Shown here: positions 7,642 to 8,984 of the stretch, piece by piece | Numbering within the stretch: position 1 is the stretch's first letter | Layout: every line of letters begins with the position of its first letter | IMG/VR virus record: IMGVR_UViG_2648501437_000035 | DNA from: a virus | Taxonomy: Duplodnaviria > Heunggongvirae > Uroviricota > Caudoviricetes | DNA length: 23,537 nucleotides | Reading direction: 5' to 3' (one strand) | Notes under the pieces: model-generated | Database searches by the model: none | Told to the model about the DNA's origin: nothing | What the model saw: the letters and a program-made list of their open reading frames with translations, nothing else | Made by a program: the position numbers and the translations under genes

Positions 7642-7824
7642 TTACCTTGTTTTCCTCGCACGATGTCTTAGCCACCGGATATCCCACAGGTGAGCCGTGT
7701 AATTGAAGGTTTTTACGTCAGATTCTTTTGGGATTGGCTTGCGTTTATTTCTGTAGCGTTTCGTTGGAAGGTATTTGCAGTTTTCGCAGATGATGTCGGT
7801 GAAACTTCGTCGCTGTCGCCTCAT
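7642..7824 (-). CDS. ninE: NinE
   Basis: 60 aa from internal ATG ([60 protein letters not shown]), matching lambda NinE as recalled. ATGA start/stop overlap with the upstream methyltransferase gene. Confidence 0.8.
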
Positions 7825-8348
7825 GCCGCCCTCCTGACGCCCTGCCCGATCGCCATCAATGCCGCTTTGGATACAGTAGTAAACATTCGTCGAGGACTGA
7901 TGAACGGTCGCCAAATCAGCAGCATGGAGCCTTTGCTGTTTCCCTTCTTCTCCAGCCCTGTCGATGGTTCGATAAAATTAATCCGTCCATCAGTGATAAT
8001 GCGAACTTCGTCGACACTCTCCAGAGCCTTGCTGAACCATCCGACTGACATATCCTCTGGCACAAGCATCACTACCGTCTGTCGCTGTTGTATGCACTGC
8101 TCAGCGGCTTTTTCCACCCACGGCCTGATATTGCTGTACGGTGGGTTATTCCAGATTGCACCGTGGCTTATCCACTCAGAATTTAGCGCGTCGTCGGCCT
8201 CAGTTAGCCAGTGAGCGCACAGAGCATTTTTGTCGCTCGCAGCTGAATCCAGCCAGAATCCAAACTCAATATCCAGTGCATCAAAAAGCCAAAGCGGCGT
8301 TTGCCAGCAGTCCTTGTCGTGTGATGGCGTATTTGATTTGATAGTCAT
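7821..8348 (-). CDS. phage DNA N6-adenine methyltransferase (Dam-like, NPPY motif), copy 1
   Basis: Contains WNNPPYSN (motif IV of N6-adenine MTases) and an upstream CWQTP motif. Start assigned to ATG at 8348 ([11 protein letters not shown]...), overlapping the ninB stop as ATGA. Confidence 0.8.
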
Positions 8349-8791
8349 GCAGCTCTCCCTTTTCGTTGTGACCATTCATACTCTCGCCAGGAGTCATCAC
8401 TCCACCGCACGTTGCGCTCTGAGCCGAACCAGAACATGATTTCGATAAGCTCAGTCATGCTGGCCTTCCGCATTTTGCTGGTACGCACGCCAAGCATGAC
8501 AACGCCACCGTCGATACCAGGCACACTTCGTTGCTCCAGTTTTTTGGTCTTAAGCCACAGGGCAGTGAACAGGTCTTTCCAGTCTTCCGGCGCCAGCCGT
8601 TGACCATGCCATAGCACCTGACGCGAAACATCGTTCAGCATCGGCCACATACGGTCATTCTGCGCTTTGCTGCGCCTGGGTTCTTTAACGTGGACTTCGT
8701 GGGGTGACTTGTCGTCGATGGGTAGTGAGAGAATGGCGTCTATGGCGTTATTTCTGATTGCTTCGTTGCGAAGCAGAAAGGTTTGCTTCAT
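8345..8791 (-). CDS. ninB: NinB (Orf-family recombination mediator)
   Basis: From MKQTFLLRNEAI...; aligns with lambda NinB as recalled (DVSRQV-WHG, SKMR, ends ...RAA). About 148 aa. Confidence 0.8.
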   Translation of the reverse strand: MKQTFLLRNEAIRNNAIDAILSLPIDDKSPHEVHVKEPRRSKAQNDRMWPMLNDVSRQVLWHGQRLAPEDWKDLFTALWLKTKKLEQRSVPGIDGGVVMLGVRTSKMRKASMTELIEIMFWFGSERNVRWSDDSWREYEWSQRKGRAA

Positions 8792-8984
8792 CTCCTGCTC
8801 TCCGGTTCCATTTTTCAGCCGCCGCAGCAACTGATGGTGCCCATGCCCCCCTGGCTTCACAGAGGTCACATTCTGCATAGCCCCACACATCAATATTTAT
8901 TCCGGCCTCAACCCACAGACGAGCATTACCGCCGCAAAACGGACATTCTTTTAGCTTTGGCTGGGTTAATGATAGGTCGCTCAT
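8748..8984 (-). CDS. Lar-family restriction-alleviation-like zinc-finger protein
   Basis: MSDLSLTQPKLKECPFCGG... has the LKxCPFCGG signature I associate with Lar proteins. AAGGAG 5 nt upstream of ATG at 8984. The supplied ORF (to 9191) extends further upstream; start uncertain. Overlaps the ninB start by about 44 nt. Confidence 0.55.
   Translation of the reverse strand: MSDLSLTQPKLKECPFCGGNARLWVEAGINIDVWGYAECDLCEARGAWAPSVAAAAEKWNRRAGDEANLSASQRSNQK

Follow-up and report, generated by a model that had tools for sequence, protein, structure and literature searches.

Two orphan phage Dam-family N6-adenine methyltransferases, probably sharing one target motif, in the nin and pL regions of a 933W-like lambdoid prophage

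The stretch of DNA analysed here over its full 23,537 nucleotides (IMG/VR virus record IMGVR_UViG_2648501437_000035; hereafter the window) originates from a 933W-like lambdoid prophage of E. coli and carries two N6-adenine methyltransferase genes of one phage family, one in the nin region (methyltransferase A) and the other in the pL operon (methyltransferase B). Judged by their sequences, both enzymes are intact, orphan, TRD-less 'phage Dam' N6-adenine DNA methyltransferases of the T1/HP1/VT2 family, and the reading preferred here, to which a probability of roughly 0.7 is attached, is that A and B act on the same motif, resulting in functional redundancy or extra dosage rather than in a designed two-specificity system. 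Their presence in one and the same prophage looks like a rare by-product of lambdoid mosaic recombination at gene boundaries. All the parts are already known and annotated, A being a published Stx-phage Dam and the Lar-family and NinB genes being standard members of the nin region; naturally occurring prophages with both A and B provide a ready-made test of redundancy within the family and could show what a phage Dam adds in a Dam+ host.

The features on which the argument draws are the following:

7642..7824, minus strand, NinE (PF05322, E=4e-42; annotated as NinE in relatives)
7821..8348, minus strand, methyltransferase A, 175 aa, of the M.EcoVT2Dam type (PF05869, TIGR01712 and identity to the VT2-Sakai Dam)
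8345..8791, minus strand, NinB, Orf-type recombination mediator (PF05772, E=4e-48)
8748..8984, minus strand, Lar-family zinc-ribbon protein, 78 aa, CPFCGG ... CDLCE (PF14354, TIGR03655)
8995..9210, minus strand, DUF7301 protein, first gene of the block (PF23975, E=4e-26; VT2-Sakai annotation)
9642..9665, minus strand, terminator-like hairpin with T-run in the gap between ren and the nin block (consensus match only)
17795..18475, plus strand, exo, lambda-type exonuclease, upstream of B in the pL operon (PF09588, E=6e-30)
18466..18633, plus strand, DUF1317 protein, lambda orf60a-like (PF07026, E=5e-32)
18626..19183, plus strand, methyltransferase B, 185 aa, N6-adenine (PF05869, TIGR01712, alignment and AF2 model)
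19194..19475, plus strand, hypothetical protein downstream of B (first ATG at 19194; start annotated in relatives at 19260)

From one end to the other, the window holds Q, an LpxR moron, a NinI-like phosphatase gene, NinG, an HNH gene and a low-GC unknown ORF, then the nin block, ren, P, O, cII, cI and N, followed by a gp17-type exclusion gene, kil, gam, bet, exo, the DUF1317 gene and B, and finally a TraR-like gene, an Ea22-like gene, xis and int. This is a typical lambdoid early region, and the operon assignment put forward in the sequence-only reading is therefore right, A lying in the nin region downstream of O, P and Ren and B in the pL operon after gam-bet-exo. The four genes on which that reading was built, namely the Lar-like gene, ninB and the two methyltransferase genes, are all present where it had placed them. 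Its view that each methyltransferase gene is translationally coupled to its neighbours stands for A on both sides and for B on the upstream side. The NinB stop overlaps the start of A and the stop of A overlaps the start codon of NinE, both in the form ATGA, A being read from the annotated start at 8348, which gives 175 aa, within a frame that is open from 7821 to 8375 on the minus strand; likewise, the DUF1317 stop and the start of B overlap by 8 nt. Coupling does not extend downstream of B, where a gap of 10 nt (ATG at 19194) or 76 nt (start at 19260) precedes the next gene, whose hypothetical product gave no match in a Pfam search and which travels with B in relatives. Consensus matching revealed no sense-strand promoter-like site before A or B, and the hairpin at 9665-9642 is tR2-like in its position, which is that of the lambda tR2 site, on a consensus match only. 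PADLOC and NCBIfam scans of the window's unknown ORFs returned nothing.

Family membership is where the claim of two intact N6-adenine methyltransferases of a single phage family, one per early operon, is best supported. A matches PF05869 with E=8.6e-65 and 218 bits (cutoff 28.1) and TIGR01712 with 263.6 bits (cutoff 97), and B matches the same two models with E=2.3e-56 and 190.5 bits and with 165.6 bits, respectively, TIGR01712 being an equivalog model for 'phage N-6-adenine-methyltransferase'; each protein spans profile positions 1-168 of 169. The NPPY motif is found at residues 68-71 of A and 75-78 of B, in both as part of NPPYS, which belongs to the 30 columns that are invariant in an alignment of A, B, T1 Dam, HP1 Dam and four homologs of the B clade. 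The latter is set apart by an insertion of about 5 residues just before NPPY, which A, T1 Dam and HP1 Dam lack. Sequence search found no solved structure for the PF05869 family. The AF2 model of B (pLDDT 85.3, pTM 0.83) has the class I SAM-dependent N6-adenine methyltransferase fold, and Foldseek searches with it retrieved solely N6-adenine methyltransferases (CAPAM, TrmM, MmeI and E. coli Dam) at TM 0.3-0.59; as matches to a predicted model, these are distant, weak and generic.

Both genes appear as orphans. PADLOC gives 'orphan methyltransferase' as the best model for A as well as for B, and there is no restriction endonuclease partner beside either gene, the neighbours being NinB and NinE for A, and DUF1317 and the hypothetical protein for B. 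This arrangement does not fit a Type II restriction-modification system, in which a cognate endonuclease would adjoin the methyltransferase; the HNH gene at 4219-4866 lies about 3 kb from A and is presumably a usual nin-region gene. Besides, the non-specific prophage enzymes of the M.EcoGI/GII, Hia5 and phiP27/PhiOS31_p25 types were considered and rejected since they belong to other families, the phiP27/PhiOS31_p25 type being an enzyme of 352 aa from a family other than PF05869. The Stx-prophage rRNA methyltransferase (MT-A70/DPPW, near int) was likewise rejected, the motif of A and B being NPPY and PF05869 their sole match. The genes upstream of A and B are those of NinB and DUF1317, respectively, where the MT-A70 type has its winged-helix partner subunit, and no MT-A70 rRNA methyltransferase gene is present in the window.

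Methyltransferase A shares 173 of its 175 residues with the Dam of the Stx2 phage VT2-Sakai, M.EcoVT2Dam (L0094 in 933W), and the gene order around it is that of the VT2-Sakai nin region, i.e. H0102 (DUF7301), H0103 (Lar family), NinB, dam and ninE, with the same overlaps, including the 44-nt overlap between the 3' end of the Lar-family gene and the start of NinB. On this level of identity, A is to be regarded as M.EcoVT2Dam in a standard VT2-Sakai nin block, with no difference of substance between the two. Coverage of the 1.7-kb block reaches 80% or more in 487 of 5,426 complete E. coli genomes, where its genes bear the same names in the annotation. Among deposited phages, the whole stretch from A to B is best matched by 933W, JLK-2012 and other Stx phages, which cover 70% of it; the match of 933W-type phages to the window breaks off where B starts, and a second PF05869 member is absent from the part of the VT2-Sakai pL operon examined.

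This conserved order bears directly on the anti-restriction module that had been proposed from the proximity of the Lar-like, NinB and methyltransferase genes. The order is simply that of the VT2-Sakai nin region, NinB is a recombination mediator, and two prophages with both A and B are devoid of the Lar-family gene; the methyltransferase gene is not even next to the latter, as had been stated, NinB standing in between. Apart from lying side by side in a conserved, packed operon, the Lar, NinB and Dam genes gave no sign of working together as an anti-restriction unit. The Lar-like assignment itself survives profile searches, with 39.5 bits against PF14354 (cutoff 28.6) and 62.3 bits against TIGR03655 (cutoff 39.6). 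The protein is 36% identical to RalR/Lar from the Rac prophage over 58 aa, with its CPFC and CDLC aligned with CPFC and CNGC of Rac RalR, and resembles it in belonging to the same family by two profiles and in its four-Cys zinc ribbon. It differs in scoring 27.6 bits against a cutoff of 113 with the RalR equivalog model NF007260, and in its location, the Rac gene sitting beside recET and that of the window in the nin region. From these scores, the name should be 'Lar family' and not RalR. Lar is reportedly able to alleviate EcoKI restriction, as King and Murray are said to have found in 1995, and the Lar-family protein of the window may, by likeness of sequence, independently alleviate Type I (EcoKI-type) restriction; a literature search on this nin-region homolog turned up no publication. 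As regards the methyltransferases, the Lar-family gene is a conserved neighbour with no evident mechanistic tie to them.

Methyltransferase B has a quite different distribution. In public assemblies the exact protein occurs in 14,727 index blocks, on many prophage backbones and at many integration sites, is annotated in RefSeq as phage N-6-adenine-methyltransferase and is 100% identical in Escherichia phage PhiR30_1, with relatives 65-85% identical in Klebsiella, Enterobacter, Citrobacter and others. B is thus already known as a routinely annotated prophage gene in thousands of assemblies. With the stretch from A to B as query, homology to the best-matching E. coli relatives (40) and phages (15) ends at query position ~10808, which is window position 18628, i.e. 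the first bases of B; a second query, built on another prophage with both genes (L092), gave the same break at the start of B. Where B is absent, the slot after the DUF1317 gene is occupied by a DUF1382 gene, which we take to be of the lambda orf63 type. In other words, B is a discrete and very common mosaic cassette that replaces the DUF1382 gene after exo-DUF1317.

Although A and B are each widespread, their combination is rare. In tblastn searches of 50,697 phage records, A was found in 1,903 records at 1,904 places and B in 2,063 records at 2,064 places, so that two family members can co-reside in at most one deposited phage. Among 80 IMG/VR contigs retrieved via the neighbouring P protein, 47 carry A; 20 of these 47 show the pL slot, and B is in none of the 20. 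Conversely, 31 of 80 contigs fetched via B show the nin region, with A in a single one (L151), and the ten distinct genomic contexts sampled for the exact B protein include one with A as well (L092). With L092 as query, A and B are both covered at 100% in 8 of the 5,426 complete E. coli genomes (H186-H193), which belong to strains of cattle and human origin, a count that is restricted to relatives of the L092 backbone and, like the other co-occurrence counts, indirect. L092 and L151 have A, the O-P genes and the kil-to-B stretch in common with the window, carry a different NinB (44% identical) and have neither the Lar-family nor the DUF7301 gene, the immunity region of L151 also being unlike that of the window. 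The A and B pair therefore arose or was reshuffled in at least three mosaics and is rare but recurrent, far rarer than either gene alone; with L092 and L151 lacking it, the Lar-family gene stands outside any fixed trio. As the samples are tied to particular backbones, low co-occurrence may partly reflect lineage structure, and it could do so rather than reflect functional equivalence of the two enzymes.

Regarding target specificity, the two methyltransferases had been judged by eye to be about one-third identical, and different targets had been suggested for them. They turn out to be closer than this, BLASTP giving 46% identity across 178 aa (E=8e-55) and the multiple alignment 48%. In the same alignment B is 48% identical to A, 42% to T1 Dam and 38% to HP1 Dam, while the values are 31% for A and T1 Dam, 35% for A and HP1 Dam, and 35% for T1 Dam and HP1 Dam; each of A/VT2, T1 and HP1 Dam thus resembles B more than it resembles the other two. 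The Dam of the Haemophilus phage HP1 is GATC-specific. GATC is likewise the sequence modified by T1 Dam (PMC4996451), and it is the target reported for M.EcoVT2Dam in a statement of PMC6602927 that cites Radlinska and Bujnicki (2001), from which A, 99% identical to that enzyme, likely methylates GATC too. How far sequence can drift with the motif maintained is illustrated by M.Btr190III, a cloned prophage enzyme that shares no more than 35% identity with T1 Dam and still methylated GATC with some off-target activity (PMC4996451), and by M.Phi93DAM from a lactococcal phage, which is described as having the NPPY motif only, is a probable member of the PF05869 family and was found by SMRT sequencing and DpnII protection to be specific for GATC (PMC4190342). 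No characterised relative with a non-GATC target was found in the literature. Since B falls inside the sequence range of these GATC enzymes, GATC is its likeliest target, and the notion of different target specificities loses its footing from the side of A as from that of B. Simple redundancy at a common motif, which the sequence-only reading had itself named as an outcome that would refute its proposal, is the likelier one.

The one sequence feature that could speak against a shared motif is the insertion of about 5 residues before NPPY in the B clade. A and B are also intact in all the dual carriers seen, i.e. in the three mosaics and the 8 complete genomes; mild redundancy does not predict that both copies would stay intact in the long term. 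Both are among the points in favour of diverged targets, B for instance being relaxed or non-GATC, which would confer wider protection against restriction or methylation-sensing defences, with Lar adding Type I alleviation. It may be added that A and B differ at 52-54% of their residues, that the off-target activity of M.Btr190III indicates that specificity can be loose in the family (PMC4996451), and that the Lar family assignment holds. Such divergence is unlikely nonetheless: every characterised relative found is a GATC enzyme despite mutual identities of 31-35%, with B inside that range; a generally useful combination would be expected to spread, yet A with B is far rarer than A or B alone; and the other dual carriers do without Lar. 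It is a shade more doubtful still that the B clade as a whole, with its insertion and its wide distribution in Enterobacteriaceae prophages, has a target differing from or broader than GATC. If this were so, the rare prophages with both A and B would write two methylation patterns on their own DNA and, with Lar, would evade more restriction systems than either parent phage.

Under the preferred reading of one shared motif, both genes would be silent in the lysogen. Once the prophage is induced or a cell infected, antitermination by N of the pL and pR transcripts would bring about joint expression of A and B as delayed-early genes, a timing that is deduced from operon position. Each enzyme would then transfer a methyl group from SAM to the N6 of adenine, most likely in GATC, the activity being established for the near-identical relative of A and extrapolated by homology to B. 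Phage DNA outpacing a limiting host Dam would be brought by this top-up to full methylation before packaging. Topping up host Dam on fast-replicating phage DNA is the usual textbook rationale for such genes and a putative one in lambdoid phages. What phage Dam enzymes do for the phage is still described as unclear in reviews (PMC7556043, PMC12707154). The window itself is depleted of GATC, with 59 sites observed for 96.6 expected (ratio 0.61, the second-lowest of the 4-bp palindromes), in agreement with the GATC-poor prophage regions already noted in print (PMC6602927).

The same depletion suggests that GATC status matters to this DNA, and it has to be counted for another reading in which A and B serve recombination, NinB/Orf in the case of A and Exo-Bet in that of B, or phage gene regulation. 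Dam overproduction blinds MutH, as established by E. coli genetics, and rapid full methylation of GATC would similarly deny MutH its hemimethylated substrate, allowing Red/Orf intermediates to escape mismatch repair; in the regulatory version, A and B would set the state of methylation-sensitive promoters or of the origin. The translational coupling of A and of B to neighbours in a recombination gene cluster fits this scheme, but adjacency is weak evidence because the genes of lambdoid early operons are packed and shuffled, the homologous gene lies away from recombination genes in T1 and HP1, and a search for data on such a role found none, which altogether makes it decidedly improbable. As for an action in vivo on RNA instead of DNA, more plausibly by B than by A, it is barely credible: the structures closest to the B model are indeed those of the RNA m6A enzymes CAPAM (TM 0.5-0.59) and TrmM, and M.EcoPA8orf6770P, a Stx-prophage MT-A70 enzyme first annotated as a Dam homolog (PMC10810198), offers a precedent for a misannotated prophage 'Dam', yet that enzyme belongs to another family (DPPW, MT-A70), the fold matches, which also list E. 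coli Dam and MmeI, are generic and weak, and GATC activity on DNA has been demonstrated for members of the T1/VT2 Dam family (PMC4996451, PMC6602927).

Among known systems, the Dam enzymes of T1 and HP1, founders of PF05869/TIGR01712, are the same small single-domain enzymes as A and B, with NPPY and the invariant residues. T1 Dam differs by an N-terminal extension of 40 aa and an insertion of 14 aa, B is distinguished from both T1 and HP1 Dam by its own insertion of about 5 aa before NPPY, and the genomic contexts of T1 and HP1 Dam are unlike those of A and B. The prophage-borne and lysogen-silent M.EcoGI/GII and Hia5, for which broad restriction protection has been proposed (PMC5778455, PMC3299994), are related neither to A nor to B, M.EcoGI/GII being beta-class enzymes of 349 aa and Hia5 of the alpha class. 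A published near-parallel for two methyltransferases on one prophage is the Stx2 prophage Phi14 of the STEC O111 strain 95NR1, which bears M.EcoVT2Dam together with an M.EcoGV-like enzyme (PMC6602927); this second enzyme is of the MT-A70 (DPPW) type and mainly a 16S rRNA methyltransferase working with a partner subunit (PMC10810198), whereas in the window both enzymes belong to PF05869.

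Regarding the distribution of methyltransferases A and B, the two PF05869 enzymes encoded in the nin region and the pL operon, respectively, three prophages bearing B in the absence of A (L003, L087 and L089) carry a 118-151-aa protein in the position taken by NinB and the Dam-like gene before NinE, from which it follows that A and B are usually linked to alternative nin modules. In L003, its coordinates and annotation are:
L003, 2131-2586, annotated as 'DNA base-flipping protein YbcN'.

In the other type of prophage combining A and B, represented by L092, Ral is encoded in the pL operon and replaces the Lar-family gene found in nin:
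L092, 6911-7111, lambda Ral gene (PF11058), pL.
The restriction alleviation function may thus be supplied by alternative genes.

On its left side, B is delimited abruptly. In over 40 relatives from E. coli, and likewise in 15 phages, homology stops within the first bases of the B start-codon region (window 18626-18628), which corresponds to query position about 10808 when the A-to-B stretch is used as query and to 10003 with the L092 query. Judged from these alignments, the overlap between the DUF1317 gene and B is a very sharp mosaic junction. Besides, six B-clade homologs of 253-284 aa from Enterobacter and metagenomes (P0050, P0060, P0068, P0069, P0072 and P0087) exhibit a C5-cytosine methyltransferase domain (PF00145) alongside PF05869, and may be either fusions or overlapping genes that were mis-called.

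Within the nin region, an additional ORF lies on the strand opposite to the nin genes, in a patch with a GC content of 34-35%:
5285-7138, plus strand, 617-aa ORF.
It looks like a moron, with no match in Pfam, NCBIfam or PADLOC, and a 590-aa 'hypothetical protein' is found at the equivalent position in a related prophage.

Elsewhere in the window, the following genes lie outside the nin region and the A and B loci:
1809-2768, plus strand, LpxR (lipid A deacylase) gene (PF09982, E=7e-40), adjoining the Q antiterminator gene.
13381-14426, plus strand, two mutually overlapping ORFs of 135 and 216 aa, between cI and N.
15922-16287, plus strand, homolog of the superinfection exclusion protein gp17 (PF17420, E=1e-55), between N and kil.
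The LpxR gene is a moron modifying the host envelope. In lambdoid phages, the cI-N interval is often the site of exclusion or defence genes; here, neither of the two ORFs it contains was matched in Pfam, NCBIfam or PADLOC.

As for GATC sites, their observed/expected ratio is 0.61 over the whole window, and they are absent for 2.2 kb (7849-10022), a segment spanning NinB, the Lar-family gene, DUF7301 and ren.
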